A DNA stretch of 64,000 nt. Source: Rhodospirillales bacterium. GTDB lineage: Bacteria; Pseudomonadota; Alphaproteobacteria; Acetobacterales; Acetobacteraceae. The DNA is taken from positions 15,331 to 79,330 of the forward strand of contig JBBIQA010000001.1 of the NCBI GenBank assembly GCA_037442565.1, in the 5' to 3' direction. Below are positions 20,443 through 37,843 of this stretch, piece by piece (position 1 is the first letter of the stretch; each line of letters begins with the position of its first letter). Position numbers and translations under genes: made by a program. The notes beneath the pieces are model-generated. The model was given only the letters and a program-made list of their open reading frames with translations. It searched no databases and was not told the DNA's origin.

Positions 20443-20586
20443 GCCATCCCAGAAGCACCGCAGGGCCGGGACTGCCCGCGAAGGTCAGCATATGGCCGCC
20501 ACCCGCCGCCGCGCCACGCCAACTCCGTCGCCTCTGCTATGCGTCAGCGCGCCGCCGCGAAGCAGAAGCGAGCCCGCTCCAGGCTC

Positions 20587-21843: not shown

Positions 21844-21948
21844 ACCGAGGTCCCTATCTGTATCTATATCCGTTGCCGATCGTCTTTCCCGGGTCGAAAC
21901 CTGGCGCGGCTTTCGCTATCCGTACCGATGCCAGGTCATGCGGGCGGA

Positions 21949-23064
21949 TCATGCCGCCAGGGCCCGCAAGCGCTCGTTGCGTCCGATCCTATCCAGCACC
22001 ATGCTGCCGGTGCGCCAATCCTCGTTCAGCGTCACGGTCTTGCGGAAGCGGTTCTGCCCGTCGCTATCGACCGGCGTGCCGACCCACTCCGTGGCCTCCT
22101 TGGGGATGACCGGAACGAGGGTCGCGATTTCCACCAGCGCGGCATGGCGCTCCGCCATGGTCTCTGCCCCGCGCCAGAGCAGGCAGATCCGCTCCCAGCC
22201 ATCCAGCAGCCACTCGGACCGCGCCACCCGCTCCGCCAGCGGCTCCGGCGCCGCGCCGAATTCGCGGATCAACCCGACAACATCGCCGGTCATGGCCTGC
22301 GCGTCGGCCAACGTGGCGCGCGCGCAGGTGATCGTCAGGCTAGCCGCCATGGTCGTCATGCCGGCCACTCCGCCGCTGTCGTCGGCGTGCTCCTGCGCCC
22401 AGGAAGCGGTTTGCGCCCGAAGCGCGCAAAGCTGCTCCAGCGCCCGGGGAATGCGCGCCTGATCGGCGAAGCTGCCGACGCCGACGCCCATGAAAACCTC
22501 CGCCAGTTCCTCCAGCCCCTTCGCGATGGTCTCCGGGGTCCAGCCGATCTTGGGCGCCAGTTCGGCGATTGTCTGCCTGGCCCGCGCCTCCAGTTCCTGC
22601 GGCTTGGCCCGATCCGGCGGCGGGGCGGCCCTGCCGTCCGGCTCCTGTTGTTCGACCATGGCCATCAGCAGCAGAAAATTGGTCACCATCCGGTCCTGCC
22701 GGTCGGTGTCGGCCGTGCTGCCCGCCGCTGCCTGCGCCTCGCGCCCGGCCAGCCCCTCGGCCGCCACTTCCCGCGCGGCCTCACGGATCAGCGCCGGCGT
22801 GACGGCCCGCAGAGTGGCGATCTTCTGGTTCAGCCGCGTGTCATGCACGGTCGGCTTGCATAGCTCGCGAACCCCGCTCCAGGGCAGGATATAGACGCCG
22901 CGCCCGCCCGAAGGGTTCGGCACGATCAGTTCCACGCCGCCGCGCTCCGACGGACGCGCCCGCGCCCCGGCAAGCATCGGCGTGGTGAAGGCCATCGCCA
23001 CCCCACGCTCCAGGAAGGTCGTGGGGTGATAGGTGTGGATCAGCGGTATATGCGGCTGTGACAT
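21949..23064 (-). CDS. Hypothetical protein, 371 aa, no recognisable domain
   Basis: Clean ORF, co-directional with and 105 bp upstream of the 418-aa unknown. The N-terminal part looks beta-rich (GVELIVPNPSGGRGVYILPW) and the rest helical. Confidence 0.7.
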   Translation of the reverse strand: MSQPHIPLIHTYHPTTFLERGVAMAFTTPMLAGARARPSERGGVELIVPNPSGGRGVYILPWSGVRELCKPTVHDTRLNQKIATLRAVTPALIREAAREVAAEGLAGREAQAAAGSTADTDRQDRMVTNFLLLMAMVEQQEPDGRAAPPPDRAKPQELEARARQTIAELAPKIGWTPETIAKGLEELAEVFMGVGVGSFADQARIPRALEQLCALRAQTASWAQEHADDSGGVAGMTTMAASLTITCARATLADAQAMTGDVVGLIREFGAAPEPLAERVARSEWLLDGWERICLLWRGAETMAERHAALVEIATLVPVIPKEATEWVGTPVDSDGQNRFRKTVTLNEDWRTGSMVLDRIGRNERLRALAA

Positions 23065-23154
23065 GGATCGGGCACCGGTTCGATACCGCCGATCCTGCTC
23101 TCCCTATCATGAAAGAAACGTTGCCGCATGGCGCGGCAGGCCCGATCCGCGGGA

Positions 23155-23937
23155 CTACCTTCCCTGAAAGACCGGCTTCTGCTTGGCCAGGAACGACCGG
23201 CAGGCGTTGCGGAAATCCTCCGTGAGGCGAAAATCGCTGGTCGCGCGGTCCTCCGCCGGGGTGATCGGCAGGTCGCCGCGCAGCTTGCGGATCGCCGCCT
23301 TGTGGTAGCGCGCCGACAGCGGGCTGCCCTGGGAAATCCGCTGCGCCAGCGCCAGCGCCTCCGCCTCCACCTGCTCGTCGGGCACCACGCGCGACAGCAG
23401 CCCCTTCTCATAGGCTTCGCGGCCGTTGAAGATCCGCCCCTCGATCAGGATCTCCGCCACCACGCCGGTACCGGCCAGCTGGATGATCGGGTCGATTTCC
23501 GCATAGGGGTACCAGATGCCCAGGTTGCGCGCGGTGATGCCGAAGCGGATGTTTTCCCCGCCGACGCGGAAATCGCACAGCGCCGCCACGCCAGCGCCGC
23601 CGCCCAGGCAATGGCCCATGATCATCGCCACCACCGGATGCCGGCACAGCCGGACCGACTGCATGCTCTCGTGCAGCACGCGGGCATATTCCTCCTCCCG
23701 CTCCTCGGTACCGCGCTCCACCTCGAACGCGGCGATGTCGGCGCCGGCGCTGAACGCCTTGTCTCCGGCGCCGCGGATGATCACGCAGCGCAGGTCGTCC
23801 TCCTCCGACAGCGCCTCCATCGTGTGCTGCAGCCCCAGCCACATGGAGAGGTCGAAGGCGTTGCGGACCTCCGGGCGATCGATGATCACGGTGGCGATCG
23901 GTCCCTCACGGGTGATCCGGAGTTTCGGATGGTACAT
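23155..23937 (-). CDS. Enoyl-CoA hydratase/isomerase family protein
   Basis: Crotonase signature (VIIRGAGDKAFSAGADI, AMIMGHCLGGG). Confidence 0.9.
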   Translation of the reverse strand: MYHPKLRITREGPIATVIIDRPEVRNAFDLSMWLGLQHTMEALSEEDDLRCVIIRGAGDKAFSAGADIAAFEVERGTEEREEEYARVLHESMQSVRLCRHPVVAMIMGHCLGGGAGVAALCDFRVGGENIRFGITARNLGIWYPYAEIDPIIQLAGTGVVAEILIEGRIFNGREAYEKGLLSRVVPDEQVEAEALALAQRISQGSPLSARYHKAAIRKLRGDLPITPAEDRATSDFRLTEDFRNACRSFLAKQKPVFQGR

Positions 23938-23987
23938 GTTTGCAGGGTCCTATTCTTCAGCGAAGCCCGTCTGGCGGAGGTTCTCTG

Positions 23988-24653
23988 TCAAACGCCGGGC
24001 AGGTCGTCAATCGCCGGCCGCCCCGTCAGGTGTCGCCAATGGTGCCACAGCAGCCGCGCCGCCAGCGACCGGGCCGGTCGCCAGGGCTCCGCCAGCGCGC
24101 GCAGTTCCACCGGGCCGGGCCGGGCCGGCAATCCCTTCAGGGCCGCGGCCGCACCCGCCACGGCGATGTCGCCGGCGGGAAACACGTCGCGCCGGCCGAG
24201 CGCGAACAGCAGATAGATTTCCGCGCTCCAGCGCCCCATGCCGCGTACCGCGGTGATCGCCGCGATCGCCTCCTCGTCCGCCATGGCGGCGATCTTCGCC
24301 GCACTCAGCCGGCCGTCCGCGAAGGCGAGCGCCAGGTCGCGGGCATGCGCCACCTTCGGGCGCGACAGCCCGGCGGCGCGCAGATCCGCTTCCCCCATCG
24401 CCAGCAGCCCAGCCGGTTCGAGCGCGCCGGGCAATGCCCGCAGCCGTGCCCAGATGGCGGCGGCGGCCTGGTTGCTGATCATCTGCCCGACGATCGCCTG
24501 CAGCAGCCCGGGAAACCCGTCCGCCCGCCGCCGCCAGGGCAGCGGCCCGGCGGCCGCCTCGATCCGCGCCAGATCCGGATCGGCCGCGACCAGAAGCCCG
24601 ATCGCCGCGCGTTCGGCCGCCGGTACGGCCGGAAATGCGGCCACGGCCTCCAC
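23988..24653 (-). CDS. alkA: DNA-3-methyladenine glycosylase II (AlkA-like, HhH-GPD superfamily)
   Basis: HhH-GPD motifs (LRAAGLSRPKVAHARDLA, VRGMGRWSAEIYLLFALGRRDVFPAGD). The 344-aa ORF was trimmed to the GTG at 24653 so that it does not run through the upstream GNAT gene. Confidence 0.78.
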   Translation of the reverse strand: MEAVAAFPAVPAAERAAIGLLVAADPDLARIEAAAGPLPWRRRADGFPGLLQAIVGQMISNQAAAAIWARLRALPGALEPAGLLAMGEADLRAAGLSRPKVAHARDLALAFADGRLSAAKIAAMADEEAIAAITAVRGMGRWSAEIYLLFALGRRDVFPAGDIAVAGAAAALKGLPARPGPVELRALAEPWRPARSLAARLLWHHWRHLTGRPAIDDLPGV

Positions 24654-25171
24654 TAGGCCGGTATATCCGAATCCCCGGCACCCAGCGCGCGCTGCATCTG
24701 CACCACATCCAGCCACCGTCCGAATTTCAGGCCGGCCGACCGCAGCGTGCCGACATGCTGAAAGCCCAGACTGGCATGCACGCCGATCGAGCCGACATTT
24801 TCGGAATCGCCGATCACCGCGATCATCGTGCGAAACCCGGCCTGCGTCGCGATCTCGATCATGCGCGCGCCGAGCGCCTTGCCGACACCCTGGCCACGAA
24901 CGTCGTCGCGGATATAGATGCTGTCCTCGGCGGTGAAGCGATAGGCCGAACGGTCGCGGAACTGTGCGTAATAGGCGAAGCCCAGCACGCCGGTGGCATC
25001 GGCGGCCACCAGCCAGGCCCACCCATGATCGGCCACGCGGCGATAGCGCCGGGTCATCTCCTCGATCGACGGCGGCTCCTCCTCGAAAGTGCCGGTGCCG
25101 TGCAGCACGTGGTGGGCGTAGATCGCCTGGATCTCGGGAAGGTCGGCCGGGGCGGCGTCACGGATCTGCAT
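24653..25171 (-). CDS. GNAT family N-acetyltransferase (phosphinothricin acetyltransferase-like)
   Basis: MQIRDAAPADLPEIQAIYAHHVLHGTGTFEEEPPS is the PAT-type N-terminus, and RGQGVGKAL is the acetyl-CoA-binding motif. Confidence 0.9.
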   Translation of the reverse strand: MQIRDAAPADLPEIQAIYAHHVLHGTGTFEEEPPSIEEMTRRYRRVADHGWAWLVAADATGVLGFAYYAQFRDRSAYRFTAEDSIYIRDDVRGQGVGKALGARMIEIATQAGFRTMIAVIGDSENVGSIGVHASLGFQHVGTLRSAGLKFGRWLDVVQMQRALGAGDSDIPA

Positions 25172-25557: not shown

Positions 25558-27852
25558 GTGGACGATATCCAGGGTCAGTCCATATCATTTGCCGACGCGG
25601 CCGCCAGCGCCGGGGGCGGCGGCGATCAGGCCAGCGGCTCCGATGCCGGCTTCCGCCCGCGCGAGGAGCGTGTCGATCCGCGAGTCCGGGCCGTATCGCT
25701 GGCCGGACGCTACTACGGCATGGAACTGGACGAGGGCGATTTCCGCCGCACGGCCGGTGAAACCCACGCCTCCGCCGCCTCGCTGGCCGCCTGGGCGCAG
25801 GAATGCGGGCTCTGGGCGAAGGGCGTCCGGCTGAACTGGCGCCAGCTTGTGCGCATCCAGGCAGCGGGCCCGGTCGTGCTGCTGTTCACCGACGGCAGCG
25901 CCGGACTGATGACCGCCGCCAACGCGGAAAACCGCGTCGTCATGATCAAGGACCCGCTGGCCCCGGTCAGTGAGCCCGCGGTCGTGGTGGACGAAAACCG
26001 CCTGAAGCAGGTCTGGTCCGGCGAGGCCGTTCTGGTCCGCGCCAACCGCGGCATCGCGGCATCGGATGCGCCGTTCAACCGCAGCTGGCTGATCTCCCTG
26101 GTCGGGCAGGAGCGCCGCTCCCTGCGCGACATCGGCTACGCCTCGCTCACGCTCAGCTTCCTGACCATCTTCCCGCCGCTACTGGTCATGACCGCGGTGG
26201 ACAAGGTGCTGACCCATCACAGCTATTCCACCCTGGCGCTGCTGGCGACCATTCTGGCGATCGGCGTGGTCTACGAAACCCTGCTCGGCCACGCCCGGCG
26301 GATGATCGTGCTGACCGTCGGCACACGGCTCGACACCAAGCTGAACCTGCACATCTTCGCCCGCCTGCTGCGCCTGCCGCTCGACTATTTCGAGCGCCAT
26401 CCCGCCGGCGAGACGATGCACCGGCTCAATCAGGTGAACAAGGTGCGGGAATTCCTCACCGGCAAGCTGCTGACCACCTTCCTCGACATGTTCACCCTGG
26501 TGGTGCTGCTGCCGTTTCTGTTCTACCTCAACGCCACCCTCGCCTGGATCGTGGTGGCCTGCTCGGCGATGATCGCGCTCATCATCCTCGCCTTCCTGAA
26601 GCCGCTGCGCAAAGTCTACGGCAACGTCATCCTGGCCGAGACCGCCCGCGCCTCGGTGCTGGGCGAGACGATCTTCGGCGTGAAGACCGTCAAATCCCTC
26701 GCCATCGAACCCCAGCGCAAGGACCTGTGGGACGCCAAGGTGGCGGACGCGGGCAAGTGGCGCATGGAATTCGGCAAGCTTGCCAGCTGGCCGCAGACCA
26801 TGATCACCCCGATCGAGCGCTTCATGTCGATCGGCATCATCCTGCTCGGCGCCTACCTCGCCCTGAAGGACGACTCCGGCTTCGCCGTGGGCTCGCTGTT
26901 CGCGTTCATGATGCTGTCCATGCGCGTCGCCCAGCCGCTGGTCGGCCTGGCCCGGCTGATCGAGGATTTCGAGGAATTCAGCGCCGCCATCGGCGAGGCC
27001 GGCTCGGTGCTCAACCGGCCGCTGGAAGCCGATGCCGCGTCCGGCGGCCTGCGCCCGAAATTCGAGGGCGCGATCACCGTGGACGACCTGTCGTTCACCT
27101 ATGGCGGCACCAAGGTGCCGGCGCTGGACCGGGTCAGCTTCGCGATCCCGGCCGGGACCATGATGGGCGTGGTCGGGCGCAGCGGCTCGGGCAAATCCAC
27201 CCTGGCCCGGCTGCTGCAGGGCATCAACCGCGACTACTCGGGCTTCCTGAAGATCGACGGCGCCGACCTCCGGGAGATCAACCTGCGGCATCTGCGCTCC
27301 AGCTTCGGCGTCGTGCTGCAGGACAATTTCCTGTTCCGCGGCTCGATCCGCGACAACATCATCGCCGGTCGTCCCGGCCTGACGATCGAGGACGTGGTGC
27401 GGGCCGCGCGGCTGGCGGGCGCCGAGGAATTCATCGAGCGGATGCCGAACGGCTACGAAACCTATATCGAGGAAGGCTCGCCCAACCTTTCCGGCGGCCA
27501 GAAGCAGCGCCTGGCGATCGCCCGCGCGCTGATCCAGGATCCGCGCATCCTGATCCTGGACGAAGCCACCAGCGCGCTCGATCCGGAAAGCGAGGCCCTG
27601 GTCAACGCCAACCTCAACCGGATCGCGCGCGGCCGTACCATGGTGATCGTCTCCCACCGCCTGTCCTCGCTCACCGAGTGCGACCAGATCCTGGTGCTGG
27701 AGAAGGGCAAGCTGGTAGACATCGCGCCGCACCGCACGTTGCTCGAACGCTGCTCGCTCTATCGCCAGCTTTGGGCGCAGCAGAACCGTCACATGGATCA
27801 TCAGGGTACCCGTCATGCAGCGATCGCTCCTACCCTCCTCCAAGGCGACTAA
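25558..27852 (+). CDS. Type I secretion system permease/ATPase (HlyB family) with N-terminal non-catalytic C39-like domain
   Basis: GTG start. C39-like fold (SLAGRYYG...PVVLLFTDGS...VVMIKDP...VWSGEAVLV) that lacks the catalytic Cys and His. Six-TM exporter domain. Walker A GRSGSGKST, signature LSGGQKQR, Walker B ILILDEATSALD, H-loop VIVSHRL. Confidence 0.92.
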   Translation: MDDIQGQSISFADAAASAGGGGDQASGSDAGFRPREERVDPRVRAVSLAGRYYGMELDEGDFRRTAGETHASAASLAAWAQECGLWAKGVRLNWRQLVRIQAAGPVVLLFTDGSAGLMTAANAENRVVMIKDPLAPVSEPAVVVDENRLKQVWSGEAVLVRANRGIAASDAPFNRSWLISLVGQERRSLRDIGYASLTLSFLTIFPPLLVMTAVDKVLTHHSYSTLALLATILAIGVVYETLLGHARRMIVLTVGTRLDTKLNLHIFARLLRLPLDYFERHPAGETMHRLNQVNKVREFLTGKLLTTFLDMFTLVVLLPFLFYLNATLAWIVVACSAMIALIILAFLKPLRKVYGNVILAETARASVLGETIFGVKTVKSLAIEPQRKDLWDAKVADAGKWRMEFGKLASWPQTMITPIERFMSIGIILLGAYLALKDDSGFAVGSLFAFMMLSMRVAQPLVGLARLIEDFEEFSAAIGEAGSVLNRPLEADAASGGLRPKFEGAITVDDLSFTYGGTKVPALDRVSFAIPAGTMMGVVGRSGSGKSTLARLLQGINRDYSGFLKIDGADLREINLRHLRSSFGVVLQDNFLFRGSIRDNIIAGRPGLTIEDVVRAARLAGAEEFIERMPNGYETYIEEGSPNLSGGQKQRLAIARALIQDPRILILDEATSALDPESEALVNANLNRIARGRTMVIVSHRLSSLTECDQILVLEKGKLVDIAPHRTLLERCSLYRQLWAQQNRHMDHQGTRHAAIAPTLLQGD

Positions 27853-29239
27853 CCGGCCGGCGGGGGGCAGAAGCGCGACGAGCGACGATCCCACCCTGCC
27901 GGTGGTTCTCGAGTTCCAGTCGCCGTCGGCCGGCATCCTGGCGATGCCGGTGCCTCGCTCCGCCCGCGGCACGGTCTGGGTCATCGGGTCGATGTTCGCC
28001 GCCTGCGTGGTGGCGCTTGGCGTGATCCATGTCGACCGCGTGGTGACCGCCACCGGGCGGGTGGTATCCCGGTCGGCCAACATCGTCGTGCAGCCGCTGG
28101 AAACCGCCATTGTGCGCTCGATCGAGGTGCATGAGGGGCAGCAGGTCCATGCCGGCGACCTGCTGGCGCGGCTCGATCCCACCTTCGCGGTCGCCGATCA
28201 GGGCGCGCTGGTCGCGCAGGTCGACAGCCTGCAGGCCGAGGTATCCCGACTGCAGGCGGAAGCCGACGGCAAGCCCTTTACCTACACCGGCCTCGACCCG
28301 TCGCTGTCGCTGCAGTCGGCGATCTACGCCCAGCGCGCGGCCGAGCGCAGCTATAAGCTGGAGAACTACCGCCAGAAGATCGACGGCCTGCAGGCCACCG
28401 TGAACCGCTCCGAGGCCGACGCCGCGGCGTTCCGCAGCCGCCTCGCCGTCGCCCAGGATGTCGAGGCCATGCGCAAGAATCTCGAAAGGCTGCAGGTCGG
28501 CAGCAAGCTGAATTCGCTGGCCGCGACCGACAGCCGCCTGGAGATCGCCCGCGGCCTGGCTTCCGCCATCGAGACCGGGGAGACCGCCAAGCGTGACCTG
28601 AAGGCGATGGAAGCCGAGCGCGACGGCTACATCCAGACCTGGCGGGCACAGACCTCGCAATCCCTCACCGAGCAGGTTCGCAAGCTCAGCGACGCCCGCG
28701 AACAGCTGAACAAGGCGCAACTGCGCCGCAAGCTGGTGGAACTGCGCGCCGACCGTGACGCCACGGTGCTGACCCTGGCGCGGGTATCGGTCGGTTCGGT
28801 GCTGCAATCGGGAGAGCAGTTCATAACCCTGGTGCCGACCGACGCACCGATGGAGGTCGAAGCCAACATCGCCGGGCGCGACGACGGCTTCGTGCATGTC
28901 GGCGACCCCGTCGCGGTGAAGTTCGACACCTTCCCGTTCAGCCTGTACGGCATGGCCGAGGGCACGGTGCGCATCGTCAGCCCGGATAGCTTCACCGCCG
29001 CGGACACGCAGTCCAGCCGGAGCCCCGGGGCCGTGCCGCTACCGGGCAATTCGCCGGAGCCTTACTACCGCGCGCGGATCTCCATCGACCAGGTCAACCT
29101 GCACAACGTGCCGCCTAACTTCCGGATCAGCCCGGGCATGCCGGTCACCGCGGACGTCAAGGTCGGCAAGCGCACCGTCCTGAGCTACCTGCTGGGCCGC
29201 ATCCTGCCGGTCACCCAGGAGGGGATGCGCGAGCCGTGA
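27815..29239 (+). CDS. HlyD family type I secretion periplasmic adaptor (membrane fusion protein)
   Basis: VLEFQSPSAGILAMPVP N-terminus, one TM helix, long coiled-coil (LQAEVSRLQAEADG...), and a C-terminal ISPGMPVTADVKVGKRTVLSYLL motif. Overlaps the ABC gene by 38 nt. Confidence 0.92.
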   Translation: MQRSLLPSSKATNRPAGGRSATSDDPTLPVVLEFQSPSAGILAMPVPRSARGTVWVIGSMFAACVVALGVIHVDRVVTATGRVVSRSANIVVQPLETAIVRSIEVHEGQQVHAGDLLARLDPTFAVADQGALVAQVDSLQAEVSRLQAEADGKPFTYTGLDPSLSLQSAIYAQRAAERSYKLENYRQKIDGLQATVNRSEADAAAFRSRLAVAQDVEAMRKNLERLQVGSKLNSLAATDSRLEIARGLASAIETGETAKRDLKAMEAERDGYIQTWRAQTSQSLTEQVRKLSDAREQLNKAQLRRKLVELRADRDATVLTLARVSVGSVLQSGEQFITLVPTDAPMEVEANIAGRDDGFVHVGDPVAVKFDTFPFSLYGMAEGTVRIVSPDSFTAADTQSSRSPGAVPLPGNSPEPYYRARISIDQVNLHNVPPNFRISPGMPVTADVKVGKRTVLSYLLGRILPVTQEGMREP

Positions 29240-29318: not shown

Positions 29319-31166
29319 ATGAAGCCGTTCGATCGGATCCATTCCATCCTCTCCCCGGCGGCGGCTCTGCGCCGGGCCACCGCCCTCGCGGCCCGCGACG
29401 AGCATGCCCACGCCTTCCCCCTCTATGTTCGCGCCGCCCGCGGCGGACTGGCCGAGGCCGAGTATCGCGTCGGGCGCAGCTACCTCGAAGGCGCGGGTGT
29501 GCCGCGCAGCCAGGTCGAGGGCATCCGCTGGCTCGAGCGCGCCGCCGCCCACGGCCATATCGAGGCGATGTCCCTGCTTGCCGCGCTCTACATCCACGGC
29601 ATCGGCGGTCCCCGCGATGCCGCCCTCGCCGCAGGCGGTGTCCCCGGCGAAACCCAGGGCGCAACCCAGGGCGGAACCGCCGCCAGCCTGCTGTTCTCCA
29701 GCAACCAAACCCAGGAACCGGATTTCGCCGCCGCCGCCCATTGGGCCCGGATGGCTGCCGAGGCGGGCTCCGCCGACGGCCAAGCCGTGCTCGCCTATCT
29801 GCTGACCTCCGGCCCCGAGGACATGCGCGACCTCGCGGAGGCGCATCTCTGGTACGAACGCTCGGCCGAGGCCGGCTGCCCGCAAGGCGCGCTCGGCTTC
29901 GCCCTTTCCCTGGCACGCGACGCGAAGGAGGAGGCAACCCACCAACGCGTCGTGCACTACCTCACCCGCGCGGCGGAAACCGACCTACCGACGGCGCTGT
30001 ATCTGCTCGGCGTGCTGCATGAACGTGGTGTCGGCGTGGAGCGCGATACCGCCGCCGCGGCCCAGCTCTACCGCCGCGCCGCGGAAAAGGGCAACCGCTC
30101 CGGCCAGGCGCGCTGGGGCCTGGCGCTGATGGAGGGCCAGGGCGTCGACGCCAACCCGTCGGAGGGCGAATCCTGGCTGCGCCGCGCGGCGCTGGCGGGC
30201 GACCCCGAGGCCGCCGCCCTGGTCGGCGACATATACGCCAAGGGCGGCGCATTGCCGCCGAACTATGCCGAAGCGGCGATCTGGATGCGCCGCGCCGCCG
30301 AGGCCGGCCACGCCGGTGCCGCCCGCACGCTCGGCCTGCTGCACCTGACCGGCGCCGGCGTCGCCCCCGACCAGGAAGAAGCCGCCCGCTGGCTGCGCGT
30401 CGCCGGCGAAGCCGGCGACAAGCACGCCCAAGCCGATCTCGCCAACCTGGTGCTGAAGGGCGTCGGCGGCACGGACGACCTGTTGCGCACCCGCCAATGG
30501 TTCGAGCAGGCGGCCGCCTCCGGCGATCTGGTCGCCGCCTTCAACTATGGCGTCTGCCTCGCCCAGGGCGTCGGCGTTCCCAAGGACGAAAAGCAGGCCG
30601 CGGTATGGATGCGCCGGGCGGCCGAAGGGGTGGTCAACGCGCAGTATTGGTACGGCCGCATGCTGATCGAGGGCAAGGGCGTGCCGGTGGACCTGGAAGC
30701 CGGCCGCTCCTGGATCGCCCGGGCCGCCGATATCGGCATGCTGGACGCCGAAGTGGCGCTGGCCGACATGCTGCTCAACGGCAAGGGCGGCCCGCGCGAC
30801 CATGGCATGGCGCTGGGATTGTTCGAGAAGGCGGCGGCCAAGGGCCATGTCGGCGCCTGCTTCGCCGTCGGCGCGATGCTGGGCGGCGGGCATGAGGTAC
30901 CGACCGACCGCGTCAGCGCCCAGCGCTGGTTCCAGCAGGCGGCCGAGCGCGGCCATCCGGTGGCCCAGATGATGCTGGGCCGCTACCTCACGCGCGGCCT
31001 GGCCGGCGAGATCGACCCGGTTCGCGCCCGGCACTGGCTGAACCAGGCCGTCGCCAACGGCCAGACCGAAGCGTCGCGCGACCTGGCGGCGCTGGATCTG
31101 GCCGAGCGCAACAATCCGACGCAGCCATCCGAAGGGGCCCCGATCGCCCGCGCGGTCGGGCTCTGA
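29319..31166 (+). CDS. Sel1-like repeat (SLR/TPR-family) protein, 615 aa, no signal peptide
   Basis: More than ten repeats of the Sel1 pattern (AEAEYRVGRSYLEGAGVPRSQVEGIRWLERAAAHGH, and so on). The N-terminus has no hydrophobic leader. Confidence 0.9.
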   Translation: MKPFDRIHSILSPAAALRRATALAARDEHAHAFPLYVRAARGGLAEAEYRVGRSYLEGAGVPRSQVEGIRWLERAAAHGHIEAMSLLAALYIHGIGGPRDAALAAGGVPGETQGATQGGTAASLLFSSNQTQEPDFAAAAHWARMAAEAGSADGQAVLAYLLTSGPEDMRDLAEAHLWYERSAEAGCPQGALGFALSLARDAKEEATHQRVVHYLTRAAETDLPTALYLLGVLHERGVGVERDTAAAAQLYRRAAEKGNRSGQARWGLALMEGQGVDANPSEGESWLRRAALAGDPEAAALVGDIYAKGGALPPNYAEAAIWMRRAAEAGHAGAARTLGLLHLTGAGVAPDQEEAARWLRVAGEAGDKHAQADLANLVLKGVGGTDDLLRTRQWFEQAAASGDLVAAFNYGVCLAQGVGVPKDEKQAAVWMRRAAEGVVNAQYWYGRMLIEGKGVPVDLEAGRSWIARAADIGMLDAEVALADMLLNGKGGPRDHGMALGLFEKAAAKGHVGACFAVGAMLGGGHEVPTDRVSAQRWFQQAAERGHPVAQMMLGRYLTRGLAGEIDPVRARHWLNQAVANGQTEASRDLAALDLAERNNPTQPSEGAPIARAVGL

Positions 31167-31177
31167 TCCGCCGCGCC

Positions 31178-34100
31178 ATGGCCGCGCCTGTGCCGGAACC
31201 GGTGGACCCGGCCAAAGCCGGGCCAGCGGCCGGCGCCGACGCCGGGGAAAACGGGCCCGATCACGCCAAACTCGCCGGCGAGGCGTTAGCCCAGGGCCAG
31301 GAAGCCGCCGCCCGGGGCGACGCCGAGGCCGCTCGGCGCTGGTTCGACCGCGCCAGCCGCCTCGCGCCCGGCGACGACACCGCGACGCTCTGCCTCGCCA
31401 GCGCCTGCCTGAACCACGACAACGCCCGCGCCGCCGGACTGTTCGAGCAGGTGCTGGAACGCCACGATCTGCAGCCGGCCTGGATCGGCCTCGCGCTCGC
31501 CCGGCTGCGGCTCGGCCAGGCCGCGCCGGCCGCCCAGGCCCTGGCCGCCGCGCTCGGCCGCTTCGCGATCATCCGCCGCGACGACTTCGCCCCCATCGCC
31601 GACGCGATCGTGCAGGCAACGCAGGTTCCAGGCTGGTGCGGCCTGCAATGGCCCGGCGCGGGCCCAGGCCGTTCCGCGCCGGACGGCATGCTGTGTGTCG
31701 GTCCGCCTGGCCCTGCCGAAGTCGCGCTGGACGGCCAGCCCGTCGCCGCGCGCGTCACCCGCCACGGCCTGCGACTGCCGCCCCGCTGGCAGCAGGCCCG
31801 GCGCCTGGATGTCCATCGCAACGGCCAGCCCCTGCTCGGCAGCCCGATCGACATCGCCGCGCTCCGGCGTACCGAGGGCTGCGTCTGGGCGAGCGAAGGC
31901 GATGACGGGGTCGCGGGCGATGGGGGCCTGGAAGGCTGGGCCTGGCATCCCGCCAATCCCGAAGCCGACCCGGTGCTGACCCTGCGGGCACTGTCCGACC
32001 CCGCCGCGCCGGCCGGCCGCCGGAACCAACCGCCCGGCCGGACCCTCACCCTCACCCCCAGCGATCATGCCGCCTCTGTCATCGGCACGGCGATCCTGGC
32101 GCGGCCGAGACGGTTCCGCGTTTCGGCCCAGGCACTGGCCGCGCTGGCGGGAAACGGCCCCATCGGACAGATCAGCATCACCGGCGCCGACGGAAGACAG
32201 CTTTCCGGCAGCCCGCTCGACCCCGGGGTGCTGCACCGCGAGGCGGTCGCCGCCGCCCTGGCGATCGCGGCGCGCTTTCCGGCCGGCCCCCCGGCCAAAC
32301 GGGCCTCCCGCCGCCCGCCGGTGGATGTCGTCATCCCCGTGCATGGTGGCGGCCGGATCACGCTGGATTGCATCGACACGGTTCTGGCCACCCTGCCCCG
32401 CGCCAGCCGCCTGGTGGTGGTGGACGACGCCTCTCCCGAAACCGGCGACAACGCAGATCTCGCCCACGCGCTGGACCGCCTGGCCACCAGGCGGCGCATC
32501 CGGCTGATCCGTCATGCCGCCAATCTCGGTTTTCCCGCCAGCGCCAATGCCGGGCTGCGGGCCTGCGCAGGGCGCGACGCGGTGCTGCTGAACAGCGACA
32601 CGCTGGTGCCGCCCAACTGGCTGGAACGGCTGCGCGACGCCGCCTACAGCGCCGGCAATATTGGAACCGTCACGCCGTTGTCGAACGACGCGACCATCCT
32701 CAGCTATCCCCATCCGAGCGCCGCCAGCCCGGCCCCCACCCTGGCCGAAACCGAATGCCTGGACCGGCTTGCCGCACAGGCCAACGGCGCCGGCGTGATC
32801 GACATCCCCACCGCGGTCGGCTTCTGCATGTATATCCGCCGCGACTGCCTGGACGCGGTCGGCGCCCTGCGCGAGGACCTGTTCGCCCAGGGCTACGGCG
32901 AGGAGAACGATTTCTGCATGCGCGCCCGCCATCTCGGCTGGCGCCACGTCGCCGCGCCGGGCGTCTTCATCGCGCACCGCTCCGGCCAGTCCTTCGGCAG
33001 CGCGCGGGCACACCTGCTGTCGCGCAACGCCGCGGTGCTGGACCGGCTGCACCCGGGCTACGCCGCCCTGGTCGCCCGGCACGGCCTGGCCGACCCGCTG
33101 GCCCACGCGCGCCGGCGGATCGACGCGGCCCGATGGCGGGAAGGCGCCAAGCGAGGCGGGGGCCAACGAAGCGGGGCCCGCCGGAAGGCCATGATCCTGG
33201 TCACCCATTTTCACGGCGGCGGCACCGAACGCCAGCTGCGCGTGCAGATCGAGGCCGCCCGCCAGGCCGGGCAGCGCCCGATCGTGCTGCGCCCGGCCCG
33301 CCTGCCGGACGGCTCGACGGCCGTCATGCTCGGGGACGGCGAGGCCACCGAGTACCCCAATCTGCGCTTCGCCCTGCCCGCCGAATTGCCCGCCGTGATC
33401 CGCCTGCTCGCCGCCGAGCGACCGGTCGCGGCGCAGGTGCATCATCTGCTCGGCCACGATCCGTCGGTGCTGCAAATCCTGGCGAAACTCGCCCTTCCCT
33501 ACGACGTCCACGTCCACGACTTCGCCGCCTTCTGCCCGCGCGTCGGCCTGCTCGGCCCCGAAAGGCGATATTGCGGCGAGCCCGACATCGCCCGGTGCGA
33601 GGCCTGCATCGCCGATATCGGCCGCAAGGACGGGCTGGACATCCCGGTGGCGGAACTGCGACGGCAATCGGCCGGCCTGTTCGCCGCCGCCGCCCGCGTC
33701 GTGGCGCCCTCGAACGACACCGCCACCCGGATCCGGCGGCACTTCCCGGCCATCGAGCCGGCCGTCGTCGAGCATGGCGACGACCGGGCCGTCGCCGACC
33801 CGCCGCCGCCCCGGCTGGTGCGCCGATCCGGGCTCGGGGGAAGTGCGGAATCGACGGGCCAGCCCGGCCAGGCGATCTGCCGCGTCGCCGTGATCGGCGC
33901 CATCGGCCTCGAAAAAGGCTACGAGGTGCTGCTGGCCTGCGCGCGCGACGCCGCCTGGCGGAACCTGCCGCTTGAATTCATCGTGATCGGCCACAGCATC
34001 GACGACGCCCGCCTGCTGGCCACCGGACGGGTCTTCATCACCGGGGAATACCGCCCGGAGGAGGCCGTGGACCTGATCCGCGCCCAGCAGGCCTCGCTCG

Positions 34101-34315
34101 CGCTGATCCCGTCGATCTGGCCGGAAACCTGGTGCTTCACCCTGACCGAGGCGTGGCAGGCCGGCCTGCAAGCCGCCTGCTTCGACATCGGCGCGCCGGC
34201 CGAACGCATCCGGCGCAGCGGGCGCGGCATGGTCCTGCCGCTCGGACTGCCCGCCGGCGCCATCAATCATCAAATGATGACGGCAACCGGCCTCGCGCGA
34301 GACGAAAGGGCCTGA
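31178..34315 (+). CDS. Multidomain glycosyltransferase: N-terminal TPR-like region + linker + GT2 (GT-A) domain + C-terminal GT4-like (GT-B) domain
   Basis: TPR-like helices at about aa 20-130. GT2 motifs VDVVIPVHGG, VVVDDASPE, LLNSDT and GFCMYIRR. The C-terminal GT-B half (MILVTHFHGGGTERQ...) carries an E-x7-E motif (PETWCFTLTEAW). No TM segments. Confidence 0.88.
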   Translation: MAAPVPEPVDPAKAGPAAGADAGENGPDHAKLAGEALAQGQEAAARGDAEAARRWFDRASRLAPGDDTATLCLASACLNHDNARAAGLFEQVLERHDLQPAWIGLALARLRLGQAAPAAQALAAALGRFAIIRRDDFAPIADAIVQATQVPGWCGLQWPGAGPGRSAPDGMLCVGPPGPAEVALDGQPVAARVTRHGLRLPPRWQQARRLDVHRNGQPLLGSPIDIAALRRTEGCVWASEGDDGVAGDGGLEGWAWHPANPEADPVLTLRALSDPAAPAGRRNQPPGRTLTLTPSDHAASVIGTAILARPRRFRVSAQALAALAGNGPIGQISITGADGRQLSGSPLDPGVLHREAVAAALAIAARFPAGPPAKRASRRPPVDVVIPVHGGGRITLDCIDTVLATLPRASRLVVVDDASPETGDNADLAHALDRLATRRRIRLIRHAANLGFPASANAGLRACAGRDAVLLNSDTLVPPNWLERLRDAAYSAGNIGTVTPLSNDATILSYPHPSAASPAPTLAETECLDRLAAQANGAGVIDIPTAVGFCMYIRRDCLDAVGALREDLFAQGYGEENDFCMRARHLGWRHVAAPGVFIAHRSGQSFGSARAHLLSRNAAVLDRLHPGYAALVARHGLADPLAHARRRIDAARWREGAKRGGGQRSGARRKAMILVTHFHGGGTERQLRVQIEAARQAGQRPIVLRPARLPDGSTAVMLGDGEATEYPNLRFALPAELPAVIRLLAAERPVAAQVHHLLGHDPSVLQILAKLALPYDVHVHDFAAFCPRVGLLGPERRYCGEPDIARCEACIADIGRKDGLDIPVAELRRQSAGLFAAAARVVAPSNDTATRIRRHFPAIEPAVVEHGDDRAVADPPPPRLVRRSGLGGSAESTGQPGQAICRVAVIGAIGLEKGYEVLLACARDAAWRNLPLEFIVIGHSIDDARLLATGRVFITGEYRPEEAVDLIRAQQASLALIPSIWPETWCFTLTEAWQAGLQAACFDIGAPAERIRRSGRGMVLPLGLPAGAINHQMMTATGLARDERA

Positions 34316-34392
34316 TAAACCGTCGCGGCAGACGATCGGCGCGAGCCTGTTGGCGCGAGCTTTTTTTCGAGTGACCCTATCGAGGTAAGTGC

Positions 34393-35541
34393 ATGTCCGA
34401 GACGAGACCAGCGCCAGCGGAAAGCGGCCAGAAGCGGATCACCGAATTGCGGGTGTCCGGCCATCTGATGACCCTGGAGACCGGCACATTCTGCGTCTTC
34501 CACGCGCCGGGCTCCGCCGCCGGCGACCCCGCGCTCGGCCTGCCGGGCGTGCGCATCTCGCTGCCGCCGGGGCCGGTGCACAACCAGGACCAGGTCAGCA
34601 TCAGCACGTTCCGCCCCGACGGCTGGTTGGGCGGCTCCGATTCCGCGGCGCTGATCCGTGTCGCCTCCGGCCCGGCCCAGGTGCTAGTAACGATCTACCA
34701 GGCCCCCGGGCAAGGCAACGAGAACGCCCCGAAGCTGCAGGTGCTGCGCCTCAGCCCAGAGCCGCAGCCGGCGTCCGCGGCGGCGCCCGGCCAGGCGAAG
34801 CCGGCCGACGCGGCGGTGCCATCGGGCGCCGGCAAGGCCGGCGCGGCGGCGCCGGCCGGCGAACGCCCGGGCATTGAGGGCACGCCGGACATCATCGTGC
34901 ACCGCCAGGTGGTCGGCGACGTCGCCAGCCGGATCGGCGAATGGGCCGGCGAACGCGCCAGCCGAAACTGGATCGAAGGGTTCTCGATCCTGCCGCCGTC
35001 GCCGCTGAAGGCCGAGGACATCGAATACCAGGCCGTGCTCGGCCGCGGCTGGCTGTCGCCCTGGGTCAATGGCGGCCAGTTCTGCGGCAGCCGCGGCATG
35101 GCGCTGCCCCTGCTCGGCCTGCGGCTGCGGCTGAAGGGGGACGCGGCCGAACGCTATGACTGCGTCTGCCACGCCAGCTTCATCGACGGCACGCAGGTCG
35201 GCCCGCTGCCGGCCGGCGCCGCCTGCGAGGCGGAGAGCCTGGCCCCGCTGGAAGCCTTCCAGATCATCATCGAGCCCAAAGCGGCAGCCCGTAGGGCGAC
35301 GCCGGCACCAGCGCCAGCACATGCGAAAGCCCAGGCGGCCCCGCCGGTGCAAGCCACGCCAGCAGCCGCGCGGATGGTGCCGGCCAAGGCGAAGCCCATG
35401 GCGAAGTCCGCGCCTGCAAAGCCGGTCGCCAAGGGAAAGGCGGCCGCACCGTCCAAACCCGCCGCGGCGAAACCGGCGGCCAAAGCCAGGCCCAGCGCAG
35501 CGGCGAAGCGCCCCTCGCCATCGGGCACACGGGCCCGCTGA
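34393..35541 (+). CDS. Hypothetical protein: N-terminal beta-rich domain, three ChW-like repeats, Ala/Lys/Pro-rich basic C-terminal tail
   Basis: GAGGT Shine-Dalgarno 6 nt before the ATG. Internal three-fold repeat at aa 166-293. The tail at aa 296-382 is rich in AKP/KPAA-type motifs. No signal peptide and no GGxGxD repeats. Confidence 0.75.
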   Translation: MSETRPAPAESGQKRITELRVSGHLMTLETGTFCVFHAPGSAAGDPALGLPGVRISLPPGPVHNQDQVSISTFRPDGWLGGSDSAALIRVASGPAQVLVTIYQAPGQGNENAPKLQVLRLSPEPQPASAAAPGQAKPADAAVPSGAGKAGAAAPAGERPGIEGTPDIIVHRQVVGDVASRIGEWAGERASRNWIEGFSILPPSPLKAEDIEYQAVLGRGWLSPWVNGGQFCGSRGMALPLLGLRLRLKGDAAERYDCVCHASFIDGTQVGPLPAGAACEAESLAPLEAFQIIIEPKAAARRATPAPAPAHAKAQAAPPVQATPAAARMVPAKAKPMAKSAPAKPVAKGKAAAPSKPAAAKPAAKARPSAAAKRPSPSGTRAR

Positions 35542-35621: not shown

Positions 35622-36848
35622 ATGAAGTTCCTGCTGGTTCATCAGAACTTCCCCGGGCAGTTCCTGCACCTCGTTCGCCACCTGGCGAAAGCGAAGACGC
35701 ATGAGGTCGTGTTCCTGTCGGAACCGAACCCCAACGTGATCTCCGGCGTGCGCAAGGTGCCCTACCGCAAGCCGCCGCCGGTTTCACCCGAAACCCACTG
35801 GGCGGCGCGGGAATTCGATGCCGCGATGCGCCGGGCGGAAATGGTCGCGCAGACCGCCGGCAACCTGAAGCAGCTCGGCTTCACTCCGGACATCATCATC
35901 GGCCATCACGGCTGGGGCGAGATGCTCAACCTGCCGGATGTCTGGCCCGACGCGCCGATGCTCGGCTACATGGAATTCTATTACCATACCGACGGTGTCG
36001 ATGTCGGGTTCGACACCGAATTCCCGATCCCGGTTGCCGAATTTCCCCGCATCCGGGCCAAGAACGCCGTCAACCATCTGGCCCTGAACCTTGGCCAGCA
36101 CGGCCAGACACCCACGCGATGGCAGCGTTCCACCTATCCGGACTGGGCGCATGAGCAGATCCACCTGCTGCCCGAGGGCGTGGATCTCGCGGCCTGCGCG
36201 CCCAGCGCCAAGGCCCGCAAGGCGCGGCTGAAGATCGGCGGCACGACGATCGGCCCGCAGGAAAAGCTGGTGACCTATGTCGCGCGCGACCTGGAACCGT
36301 ATCGCGGCTTCCACGTCCTGATGCGAACGCTGCCGCTGCTGCTGAAGGCGCGCAAGGATCTGCGCGTGGTCATCGTCGGCGGCGACGGCGTCAGCTACGG
36401 CGCCGCGCCGGCCAGCGGCACCTGGCGTGAAACCATGCTGGCCGAGCTTGGCGGCAAGATCGACCTCAGTCGCGTCGTTTTCCCCGGCCGGGTCGACTAC
36501 GCAACGTACCTGGCCCTGCTGAAGCGCTCGGACGCGCATGTCTACCTCACCTACCCCTTCGTCGCCTCCTGGTCGCTACGCGAGGCTCTGGCGAGCGGTT
36601 GCGCCGTGGTCGGCTCCGACACCGAGCCGGTGCGCGAGTTCGTCACCCATGGCGTCAACGGCCTGCTCGTGCCGTTCTTCGACACCAAGGCCCTGGCCCG
36701 CCAGATCCTGAAGGTGATCGAGGACGACGCCCTGTCCAAGCGGCTTCGTGCCGGGGCCCGGCGCTACGCCGAGGCGCATCTGGCCATGGACGACTACATT
36801 CGCGACTATGAGGCGCTGATCGCCCGTATCATCGCGCCGAACGAATGA
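35622..36848 (+). CDS. Glycosyltransferase family 4 (GT-B, retaining type)
   Basis: MKFLLVHQNFPGQF N-terminus typical of a GT4 subgroup. The C-terminal half has PFVASWSLREALASGCAVVGSD (E-x7-E region). Confidence 0.88.
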   Translation: MKFLLVHQNFPGQFLHLVRHLAKAKTHEVVFLSEPNPNVISGVRKVPYRKPPPVSPETHWAAREFDAAMRRAEMVAQTAGNLKQLGFTPDIIIGHHGWGEMLNLPDVWPDAPMLGYMEFYYHTDGVDVGFDTEFPIPVAEFPRIRAKNAVNHLALNLGQHGQTPTRWQRSTYPDWAHEQIHLLPEGVDLAACAPSAKARKARLKIGGTTIGPQEKLVTYVARDLEPYRGFHVLMRTLPLLLKARKDLRVVIVGGDGVSYGAAPASGTWRETMLAELGGKIDLSRVVFPGRVDYATYLALLKRSDAHVYLTYPFVASWSLREALASGCAVVGSDTEPVREFVTHGVNGLLVPFFDTKALARQILKVIEDDALSKRLRAGARRYAEAHLAMDDYIRDYEALIARIIAPNE

Positions 36849-36988: not shown

Positions 36989-37843
36989 ATGCCGTACAAG
37001 GATATTCTGGTCCACCTGGACGACACGCCGCGCAGCTCCATCCGGCTCGACCTCGCGGTTCGGCTGGCGGCCGTCAGCGGGGCGCACCTGAGCGGGGTTC
37101 ACGCCATCAACCTCCCGGCCGCCTCGATGTTCTACGGCTATTCCATGACCGTCGCCTCGCCCGGCCCGGAAGACCTGATCGAGACGCTGCGGCAGGAGGC
37201 GCTGGAGCGGATCGCCCCGATCGAGGCAGCGTTTCGCGAGCGCATCCGTCAGGAAGGGCTCGACGGCGAGTGGCGCGTGGTGGAAGGCGACCCCGCCGCG
37301 ATGGTGGCGTTGCACGCGCGCTACGCCGATCTGGCCATCGTCGGCCAGCCCAACCGCCACGAACCGCAATCGGACGGCAGCGACCACATTCCGGTATCGG
37401 TGCTGATGTCGGCCGGCCGGCCCGCGCTGGTGGTTCCGTATGCCGGCAAGTTCGACACGATCACCAGACATGTCCTGGTCGCCTGGAACGCCAGCCGCGA
37501 AGCCGCCCGCGCCGTCAACGACGCGCTGCCGCTGCTGAAGGCGGCACAGAAGGTGACGGTGCTGTCGATCAACCCGGAAACCGGCATCGACGGGCACGGC
37601 GACGTTCCCTCGGCCGACATCTCGCTGCACCTGGCGCGCCACGGCGTGAAGACGGAAGCCGCGCACACCGTCGCGCGGGACATTCCGGACGGCGAGGCGC
37701 TGCTGTCCTATGCCTCCGACATCGGCGCCGAACTGATCGTCGCCGGCGCCTACGGCCATTCGCGCATGCGCGAACTGGCCTTCGGCGGCGTCACCCGCAC
37801 GCTGCTGACGGAAATGACCGTGCCGGTGCTGTTCTCGCACTGA
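36989..37843 (+). CDS. Universal stress protein (tandem UspA domains)
   Basis: Two USP modules (MPYKDILVHLDD... and ...HVLVAWNASREAARAV...AELIVAGAYGHSRMRELAFGGVTRTLL). GGGAGA Shine-Dalgarno. Confidence 0.9.
   Translation: MPYKDILVHLDDTPRSSIRLDLAVRLAAVSGAHLSGVHAINLPAASMFYGYSMTVASPGPEDLIETLRQEALERIAPIEAAFRERIRQEGLDGEWRVVEGDPAAMVALHARYADLAIVGQPNRHEPQSDGSDHIPVSVLMSAGRPALVVPYAGKFDTITRHVLVAWNASREAARAVNDALPLLKAAQKVTVLSINPETGIDGHGDVPSADISLHLARHGVKTEAAHTVARDIPDGEALLSYASDIGAELIVAGAYGHSRMRELAFGGVTRTLLTEMTVPVLFSH

Follow-up and report, generated by a model that had tools for sequence, protein, structure and literature searches.

We have analysed a 64,000-nucleotide stretch of DNA (hereafter the window) from contig JBBIQA010000001.1 of a Rhodospirillales bacterium of the Acetobacteraceae, and focus on one plus-strand gene, at positions 34393..35541, which lies between two glycosyltransferase (GT) genes and encodes a 382-amino-acid protein, here called the target. 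The target appears to be a two-domain module in free-standing form; other bacteria have this module joined to the end of the neighbouring GT, and because of these fusions the target is more likely a GT binding subunit than a secreted or glycosylated product. We tentatively propose, with a confidence that falls a little short of an even chance, that it is a cytoplasmic, lectin-like substrate-binding subunit of the upstream GT2+GT4 polymerase, with a polybasic tail that replaces the covalent link. Overall, the evidence favours a GT-associated binding subunit over a passenger of the type I secretion system (T1SS) encoded in the same gene cluster, an adaptor for T1SS cargo, a glycosylation acceptor or a regulator.

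The target belongs to a large uncharacterised family

An earlier sequence-only reading of the window had described the product of this open reading frame (ORF) as an unknown protein of 382 aa. The ORF is a real gene and a member of a large uncharacterised family, since it has a ribosome-binding site, a coding-type base composition and many homologues. A Shine-Dalgarno-like GAGG, read directly from the sequence, stands at 34382..34385 on the plus strand, 7 nt 5' of the ATG start; the GC content by codon position is 0.72/0.61/0.87, the same pattern as in the adjoining genes, and the pattern is reversed in the antisense ORFs that overlap the gene; and residues M1-S2 are invariant in an alignment of 20 homologues. 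More than 2,500 proteins matched at E <= 0.001 in a word-indexed homology search; the top 120 each scored above 350 bits, and almost all were unnamed or annotated as 'hypothetical'. With residues 1-296 as the query, an exhaustive search of 50%-identity representatives gave 2,226 clusters, 149 of them below 1e-30.

The 20-homologue alignment, with conservation computed per segment over 120 homologues, divides the protein into four parts: an N-domain, a variable linker, a C-domain and a variable tail. The N-domain and C-domain together are referred to below as the N-C unit. The target has no signal peptide and no transmembrane (TM) segment, its highest 19-residue hydropathy being 1.2; it has no match to HemolysinCabind, and the RTX motif GGxG[ND]D is absent from every frame of the 64-kb window, so that the lack of a signal peptide and of RTX repeats noted earlier is borne out. 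The whole protein has an isoelectric point (pI) of 9.76, while the body without the tail carries a net charge of -5 and has a pI of 5.6. Three of the five cysteines are invariant in the 20-homologue alignment. Just 5' of the ribosome-binding site, at 34339-34368, there is a GC-rich direct repeat (GGCGCGAGC ... GGCGCGAGC) followed by seven T, which our terminator scan did not report as a terminator.

Two folded domains: a diverged ChW triplet and a beta-sandwich

The C-domain (130 amino acids, aa 166-296) is modelled by AlphaFold2 (AF2) with a predicted local distance difference test score (pLDDT) of 85-95 and consists of three units related to the clostridial hydrophobic W (ChW) repeat. Unit 2 (aa 207-251; 35011..35145, plus strand) is the clearest: PF07538 matches at aa 219-249 with 25.0 bits in the whole protein and with 28.2 bits when unit 2 is searched alone, against a gathering cut-off of 22 bits, and the likeness to ChW first seen by eye in this unit is thereby upheld. 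Units 1 (aa 166-206; 34888..35010, plus strand) and 3 (aa 252-296; 35146..35280, plus strand) have no Pfam match, and an internal comparison of the three units with 20 sequences was not significant. Once 222 C-domains were used, profile-profile alignment with hhalign placed the units in register, with E=2.2e-5 for units 2 and 3 (40 columns), E=7.9e-4 for units 1 and 2 (22 columns) and 0.024 for units 1 and 3. Because of this register, the three-unit repeat that the sequence-only reading had described appears to be real, units 1 and 3 being strongly diverged; the strings that it had quoted as the ends of the units are also where it put them (WIEGFSI at 193-199, LLGLRLRL at 240-247 and LEAFQIII at 286-293).

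Conservation reaches its maximum in unit 2 (0.88, the highest in the protein), where the 20 homologues share a near-continuous invariant run, EYQAVLGR.W.SPW..GG..CGSRGM. The Gly-Trp motif is represented there by the near-invariant G219 and the invariant W220, together with W224; unit 1 has G182-x-W184 and unit 3 has no Trp. A Foldseek search of predicted viral structures gave three phage lysins as the top matches, at probability 1.0 over about 137 columns and with root-mean-square deviations of 2.7-3.8 Å, an alignment length that fits the whole C-domain and not the N-domain of about 105 residues. As tblastn of the C-domain against 50,697 phage genomes gave no match, this similarity to lysins is structural only. 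A search of PHROGs found nothing for either domain.

ChW domains are repeats of about 50 residues with GW motifs that occur mostly in endolysins and have been suggested to act 'in triplet'; the ChW domain of a Lactobacillus casei lysin binds peptidoglycan (PMC5817068, PMC10610939), which is the only experimentally defined ChW ligand (PMC10610939), and the repeat was first proposed to serve surface anchoring or protein-protein interaction (PMC5817068). The target resembles the PF07538 proteins, that is, Firmicute surface proteins and phage endolysins, in that unit 2 passes the family threshold and in that three units of about 45 residues form one compact all-beta domain, as in the proposed triplet (PMC5817068). 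It differs from them in several respects. Its hosts are Gram-negative Alphaproteobacteria (Acetobacteraceae and Azospirillum), and it has no signal peptide, features unlike those expected of a secreted or wall-associated protein of monoderm bacteria or their phages. Pfam recognises one of its three units, the other two being too diverged; alongside the repeats stand an N-terminal beta-sandwich unrelated to them and a polybasic tail; and the module is linked or fused to cytoplasmic glycosyltransferases, sulfotransferases and methyltransferases, not to wall hydrolases. The ChW domain may bind peptidoglycan or a wall polymer, the lysin fold match being the only indirect support.

The N-domain (aa 15-121; 34435..34755, plus strand) is predicted to be a beta-sandwich without an assignable family. 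Modelled with AF2 from a deeper alignment of 48 sequences, it is all-beta with seven strands (pLDDT 89.5; predicted TM score 0.83), in line with the sandwich suspected from the sequence, and its mean column conservation is 0.78. It matches no Pfam, NCBIfam or PHROG family and, by profile search, no sequence in the Protein Data Bank (PDB). Foldseek against the PDB gave a best E of 0.08 and TM scores of at most 0.46, with nothing below E 0.01; the best fold matches are generic jelly-roll, cupin and CBM3 sandwiches, the CBM3 one at E of about 0.4. Two other interpretations of this region were tried and dropped. A PilZ-like domain is contradicted by motifs that do not fit and by the lack of a Pfam match, and a double-glycine leader in 'TELRVSGH' is contradicted by the confident modelling of this segment as a beta-strand of the N-domain and by an ABC exporter without a Peptidase_C39 match. 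Between the two domains runs a disordered linker rich in Ala, Pro and Gly (aa 122-165; 34756..34887, plus strand; pLDDT <50), which is variable in sequence (conservation 0.25) and in length (20-69 aa across the family).

The module is fused to glycosyltransferases in other bacteria

The upstream neighbour of the target is a GT of 1045 aa with TPR, GT2 and GT4-like regions (31178..34315, plus strand), and it is the constant partner of the target. Searching annotated plasmids with tblastn, we found the N-C unit in ten Azospirillum plasmids, in nine of them inside genes annotated 'glycosyltransferase'. In three Azospirillum species RefSeq coding sequences of 1380-1398 aa are made up of an orthologue of the upstream GT, a linker and a C-terminal N-C unit. 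The 1380-aa protein of A. argentinense Az39 p5 reads TPR, GT2, GT4, linker, N-domain, linker and ChW triplet and ends five residues later; its first ~1040 residues are 39% identical to the upstream GT of the window (E=8e-174), and two genes further on there is a PF12000-GT4 gene whose product is 48% identical to that of the gene downstream of the target. The arrangement in A. thermophilum and in A. brasilense MTCC4039 is the same, and two metagenomic proteins (P0241 and P0267) are equivalent fusions. The polybasic tail is absent from the Azospirillum fusions. Three further apparent fusions (P0122, P0269 and P0153) were excluded, since an 'MSD' start and junk-like junctions mark them as probable products of read-through or of frameshifts in gene calling.

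The ChW triplet also occurs alone, at either end of other enzymes: it is fused to GT61 (six representatives), to GT92/GT2_4, to PF12000-GT4, to Stf0 sulfotransferase (at either end) and to a SAM (S-adenosylmethionine) methyltransferase. All of these partners are cytoplasmic enzyme families, and the GTs and the sulfotransferase act on sugars. Some proteins carry two triplets, in the order ChW triplet, N-domain, ChW triplet (P0207) or GT61 followed by two ChW triplets (P0221).

The same association is seen where the module is free-standing. At one locus (L093) the N-C gene is two genes away from a 40%-identical GT2+GT4 and there is no T1SS or other exporter within 10 kb; at another (L092), a minimal three-gene locus with no sugar-nucleotide or exporter genes nearby, it directly follows a gene for a 349-aa protein that corresponds to the GT4-like domain alone of the large GT (aa 673-1035, 38% identity). 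In all the contexts examined that have intact flanks, the constant partner of the N-C unit is the GT, not the T1SS. The sequence-only reading had attached weight to the position between two GT genes, and a functional link to the GTs is strongly supported both by the synteny of the two neighbours (69/70 related loci for the upstream GT, 81/81 for the downstream one) and by true fusions to the upstream-GT orthologue. One locus on Acetobacter aceti plasmid pAAJCM20276_1 (L085, 11974-14583) retains the pair of N-C and PF12000-GT4 genes, the upstream part of the cassette having been replaced by IS66 and IS5 elements; it may be a natural partial knockout.

The fusions bear on the proposal, made by the sequence-only reading, that the target is the best candidate for a glycosylation acceptor. 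As an acceptor, the target would receive a glycan from the flanking GTs on its linker or tail, in trans here and in cis when fused, and would act as a glycogenin-like primer. The operon-like arrangement flanked by GTs and the two long disordered segments would suit such a role, and GT fusion is compatible with self-priming. However, the disordered segments are poorly conserved (0.25) and poor in Ser/Thr (8% in the linker), the protein has no N-x-S/T sequons at all, and the tail is wholly absent from the true fusions. Conservation lies instead in the folded domains and above all in unit 2, the pattern of a binding site rather than of an acceptor site, and ChW-only fusions to sulfotransferases and methyltransferases are hard to fit. 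We therefore consider an acceptor or primer very unlikely, and the ranking as best candidate for an acceptor is not supported.

A second proposal that concerns the partners of the module starts from gene order. The order repeat protein, GT, N-C unit recurs in three lineages, the slot 5' of the GT being occupied by an RTX protein in Azospirillum and at L092 and by a Sel1-repeat protein in Acetobacteraceae. The N-C unit might then be an adaptor that binds the upstream-encoded repeat protein (Sel1 here, ExpE1-like RTX elsewhere) and passes it on to the GT, to be glycosylated before T1SS export. Besides the conserved order, which extends to the minimal three-gene locus, this is suggested by the N-terminal TPR region of the large GT, which is typical of protein-binding GTs, and by the original proposal of protein-protein interaction for ChW (PMC5817068). 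Fusions to GT61, Stf0 and methyltransferase elsewhere point, on the contrary, to a common small or glycan ligand and not to a protein peculiar to one lineage; the enzymes homologous to the GT2+GT4 module are of the polysaccharide type, and on E. coli plasmids such homologues form part of the large GT in a standard rfbBADC/Wzm/Wzt O-antigen locus; and the sole ligand defined experimentally for ChW is peptidoglycan (PMC10610939). A cargo adaptor thus seems quite unlikely to us.

Three observations concern the GTs and their surroundings. A conserved cluster of four cysteines (CPR...RYCGEP...C-x2-C, aa ~786-812) lies in the GT4-like domain of the large GT; it is also present in the Azospirillum and L092 homologues and may be a zinc ribbon inserted in the GT-B fold. 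The ~250 residues between its TPR and GT2 regions (aa 130-375; 31178-32320 in the window, plus strand) match no family and are conserved with Azospirillum. Finally, three Azospirillum plasmids (L084, 2802-11707; L087, 10542-19425; L090, 7063-15941) share a co-oriented five-gene unit that encodes an RTX protein, the GT2+GT4+N-C fusion, a small methyltransferase, PF12000-GT4 and a large SAM methyltransferase with a regulatory domain, an organisation that presumably parallels the S. meliloti expE operon.

A basic C-terminus accompanies most unfused forms

The C-terminal 86 residues of the target (aa 297-382; 35281..35538, plus strand; ending ...SGTRAR) form a tail that is disordered in the AF2 model and consists of 40% A, 19% P, 13% K and 8% R, with a net charge of +18 and a pI of 12. 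It had been called almost pure A/K/P; it is Ala/Pro/Lys-rich and basic, but the description is overstated, as A+P+K make up 72% (80% with R). In 102 close homologues, tail length ranges from 19 to 102 aa with a median of 51, the net charge is always at least +6, and A+K+P+R account for about 70%. Conservation is 0.26 overall and rises to 0.53 in the final eight residues, which end in P-G-R-R-x-R, the terminal R being present in 83 of the 102.

Is the tail a DNA-binding element? The likeness to histone H1 and AlgP on which this idea was built holds for composition and charge but not for the periodic repeat of AlgP: there is no regular KPAA-type repeat (nothing beyond a 12-nt unit at 1.9 copies in Tandem Repeats Finder), no family matches, DNA-binding ones included, and for these two reasons the likeness appears to be compositional only. 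The alternative offered by the sequence-only reading, that the basic tail may bind an acidic glycan or DNA, would agree with the data. AlgP, PhaF and PhaM are accessory proteins of polymer-producing systems. The target tail is like theirs in composition and strong positive charge, and unlike theirs in having no regular repeat and no detectable homology to them; moreover, in the target family the tail can be as short as about 10 residues and is lost when the module is fused to an enzyme. By analogy with these three proteins the target could be a nucleoid or DNA-binding regulator, the tail binding DNA so as to regulate or position the polysaccharide genes or machinery, and besides the A-, P- and K-rich composition the retention of a basic C-terminus across most of the family would speak for it. 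Neither the length nor the sequence of the tail is conserved, however; no DNA-binding family is matched, the tail is dispensable once the module is joined to an enzyme, and the conserved body is a lectin-like module repeatedly fused to enzymes. Such a role strikes us as highly improbable.

What the tail does follow is the state of fusion. In true fusions with the module at the C-terminus, the protein ends neutrally, 0-17 residues past the domain, whereas most free-standing forms have a basic terminal cluster of ~9 to ~150 residues. One protein from a complete Acetobacteraceae genome (P0172) has an end of just 17 aa with a net charge of +8, and yet it is encoded in a full cassette with T1SS; because of this short basic end, the recurrent feature appears to be that the unfused protein ends in a basic C-terminus, with the Ala/Pro/Lys stretch as a spacer whose length varies. 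We infer that binding of the tail to an anionic surface localises the unfused module, as the covalent link does the fused one.

A conserved cassette of T1SS and glycosyltransferase genes

The target gene belongs to a six-gene cassette on the plus strand that starts at ~25.5 kb, with unrelated minus-strand genes upstream. In order, the cassette encodes a HlyB-type T1SS ATP-binding cassette (ABC) exporter with an N-terminal C39-like domain (25558..27852), a HlyD-family T1SS periplasmic adaptor (27815..29239; TIGR01843, 377 bits versus a cut-off of 209), a Sel1-repeat protein (nine repeats; 29319..31166), which lacks a signal peptide and is an alternative candidate for T1SS cargo, the TPR-GT2-GT4 enzyme, the target, and a PF12000 + GT4 glycosyltransferase (35622..36848), a homologue of a GT of the S. 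meliloti exp locus. Residues 44-743 of the ABC align with positions 3-693 of TIGR01846 at 544 bits, which is below the model cut-off of 726, and the protein has no Peptidase_C39 match in Pfam. The ABC and HlyD genes overlap by 38 nt (27815-27852), which suggests translational coupling. No intrinsic terminators were found between the genes of the cassette.

Within Acetobacteraceae the cassette is almost invariant: among 83 related loci, those with too little flanking DNA being left out of each count, the ABC is present in 59/61, HlyD in 63/65, Sel1 in 66/68, the upstream GT in 69/70 and PF12000-GT4 in 81/81. Genes beyond the cassette differ among these loci. A tandem universal-stress-protein gene that follows it in the window (36989-37843, plus strand) is found only in the closest relatives (L001, L004-L008) and probably lies outside the conserved unit. 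On the other side, plus-strand ORFs at 19660-24936 were considered as cargo genes and rejected as at least partly antisense artefacts; the real genes of that region are on the minus strand, housekeeping or hypothetical, and outside the conserved cassette. Two minus-strand genes in the area (20587-21843, 418 aa; 21949-23064, 371 aa) are supported by codon-position GC and belong to no Pfam family. We found nothing in the literature specific to the cassette in Acetobacteraceae or Azospirillum.

The closest known system is the S. meliloti exp (galactoglucan) locus, and the cassette is thus a relative of T1SS-linked polysaccharide systems. The exp/wg genes for exopolysaccharide II (EPS II) include the ExpD1/ExpD2 T1SS, the secreted RTX-like protein ExpE1 and several GTs. 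ExpE1 is secreted via ExpD1/ExpD2, and production of EPS II requires both the T1SS and a T1SS-secreted protein (PMC1403797). As in the cassette, a T1SS ABC and polysaccharide GTs are found together in the exp locus, with an adjoining ORF of the size of a membrane fusion protein (MFP). The PF12000-GT4 of the window has a full-length, 41%-identical homologue on S. meliloti pSymB, beside a PrtD-like ABC, the MFP-sized ORF and an RTX protein. The window ABC is 29% identical to the PrtD-like one, and the two differ in that the exp ABC has 589 aa and no N-terminal C39-like domain, while the window ABC has 764 aa. The HlyD adaptor of the window had no hit in the exp locus, the exp region examined contains neither a ChW/N-C protein nor a Sel1 protein, and, conversely, the RTX protein is missing from the window. 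The large GT was rejected as a direct orthologue of ExpE2, the similarity being only weak (23-26%). Among the relatives of the cassette, the Azospirillum RTX protein is 35% identical to that of the exp locus, and a Rhodospirillum rubrum plasmid carries a 39%-identical GT beside T1SS and RTX genes.

With a complete T1SS in the cassette, it is natural to ask if the target is itself exported, and the sequence-only reading had made it the best candidate for a passenger. Exported by HlyB/HlyD, with a C-terminal signal located within the tail or at its end, it would bind the surface glycan of the neighbouring GTs on the outside, in a role like that of ExpE1 for galactoglucan or of an S-layer protein anchored to O-antigen. 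The near-constant presence of the T1SS genes, a window without RTX cargo, the absence of an N-terminal signal peptide and the disordered C-terminal region with its conserved P-G-R-R-x-R end would all agree with export, as would the extracellular, wall-binding nature of known ChW domains (PMC5817068) and the need for a T1SS-secreted protein in EPS II production (PMC1403797).

Other evidence points away from it. In other lineages the N-C unit is a tail-less domain of cytoplasmic enzymes, which is how a binding module behaves, and it is found beside a GT without any T1SS (L093, Azospirillum); P0172 keeps the full cassette with a mere 17-aa end. T1SS substrates are typically acidic, whereas the target has a pI of 9.8 and its tail one of 12. 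HlyB-type ABC proteins with a C39-like domain are usually paired with RTX substrates, and the target has no RTX repeats. Of the features expected of a T1SS substrate it thus has the position beside the ABC and MFP genes, but neither RTX repeats nor an acidic, Cys-poor composition, three of its cysteines being invariant. The Sel1 protein is, furthermore, an equally placed candidate; it has a pI of 6.05 and an extreme C-terminus, ..(Q/R)AVG(R/H/D/L), that is kept in 68 loci after a variable linker. Because it occupies the slot of the ExpE1-like RTX protein of Azospirillum and L092, it may be the real T1SS cargo, and it is at least as good a candidate as the target. We regard export of the target as unlikely, and its ranking as the best candidate is not supported.

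A variant of the export idea gives the target a role in transit. It could be a carrier that couples cytoplasmic glycan synthesis to HlyB/HlyD: the ChW triplet would capture the glycan made by the GT2+GT4 enzyme, or the target would itself be primed with glycan, and the complex would then enter the channel with the polybasic C-terminus first. We give this a slim chance. If it were true, the T1SS would export a polysaccharide or glycoconjugate riding on a dedicated lectin-like escort, which would also explain the need for a T1SS in the production of S. meliloti galactoglucan.

A putative substrate-binding subunit of a glycan polymerase

For the GT-associated binding subunit that we favour, the nearest functional analogue is the C-terminal carbohydrate-binding module (CBM) of Wzt, which is cytoplasmic and acts in ABC-transporter-dependent O-antigen assembly (PMC11231755), and which provides a precedent for a cytoplasmic CBM in glycan assembly. 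The Wzt CBM and the predicted CBM of the K. pneumoniae O7 terminator are cytoplasmic, non-catalytic, beta-rich modules attached to proteins of glycan assembly, as we propose for the target. Wzm/Wzt O-antigen loci also contain relatives of the partner GT, and the Azospirillum loci carry Wzm, Wzt and rhamnose genes. The target differs from the Wzt CBM in being attached to, or encoded beside, the polymerase and not the transporter, and PDB searches detected no sequence or fold similarity of its domains to solved CBMs. CBMs are almost unknown on O-antigen biosynthetic enzymes, that is, outside the transporter (PMC11231755).

Directly observed are the domain architecture, the size of the family, the synteny of the cassette, the gene fusions and the lack of targeting signals; the mechanism that we propose is drawn from the fusions and the synteny. 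The target would remain cytoplasmic, placed against the inner face of the membrane. Its ChW triplet, which has the fold of phage lysins that grip cell-wall glycopolymers, would bind the nascent or primer glycan or a glycosylated intermediate, and binding would keep the substrate on the polymerase. The beta-sandwich of the N-domain would dock on the GT4-like domain, which always precedes the N-domain. In the unfused form the flexible polybasic tail would serve as a tether by binding an anionic surface, for example membrane phospholipid or the polymer. Synthesis of the product may be coupled to the adjacent HlyB/HlyD exporter, as that of galactoglucan is to ExpD1/ExpD2 in S. meliloti. This picture is supported by a tail that tracks the fusion state, by the absence of a signal peptide, TM segment and RTX repeats, and by the three invariant cysteines.

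Several points weigh against it. The ChW domains whose function is known are extracellular, and to assign one to the cytoplasm is to extrapolate. The likeness to lysins is one of structure, in lysin regions that are not confirmed as ChW, and no solved structure was matched, either in a PDB sequence profile search with the family or in a Foldseek search of the PDB with the full model (none below E 0.01). The cassette has a complete protein exporter without a recognised cargo, and the extreme C-terminus of the target is conserved, where T1SS signals lie. A few free-standing members (P0161, P0166 and P0214) have no basic end, which suggests that a tether is not always needed. Lastly, what the module binds could be a protein, namely its Sel1 or RTX neighbour, and not a glycan.

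Implications

Previous work has regarded ChW repeats as wall anchors that Gram-positive bacteria and their phages use outside the cell. In Alphaproteobacteria we find a ChW triplet as a widespread module (>2,200 clusters), which stands beside, or is fused to, cytoplasmic enzymes that build or modify glycans; what is new is that a ChW-type module, together with an unassigned beta-sandwich, appears in a cytoplasmic setting of glycan assembly in Gram-negative bacteria. Should it bind nascent glycan, polymerases and terminators would have an intracellular carbohydrate-binding module of a new class. The cassette, which is conserved across Acetobacteraceae, joins a protein exporter to polysaccharide-type GTs and offers a second, genetically simpler system for the question, which has stood since 2000 for S. 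meliloti exp, of why exopolysaccharide production needs a T1SS. Cultured carriers include Azospirillum argentinense Az39, A. brasilense, Acetobacter aceti JCM20276 and the Acetobacteraceae strain CP039460.

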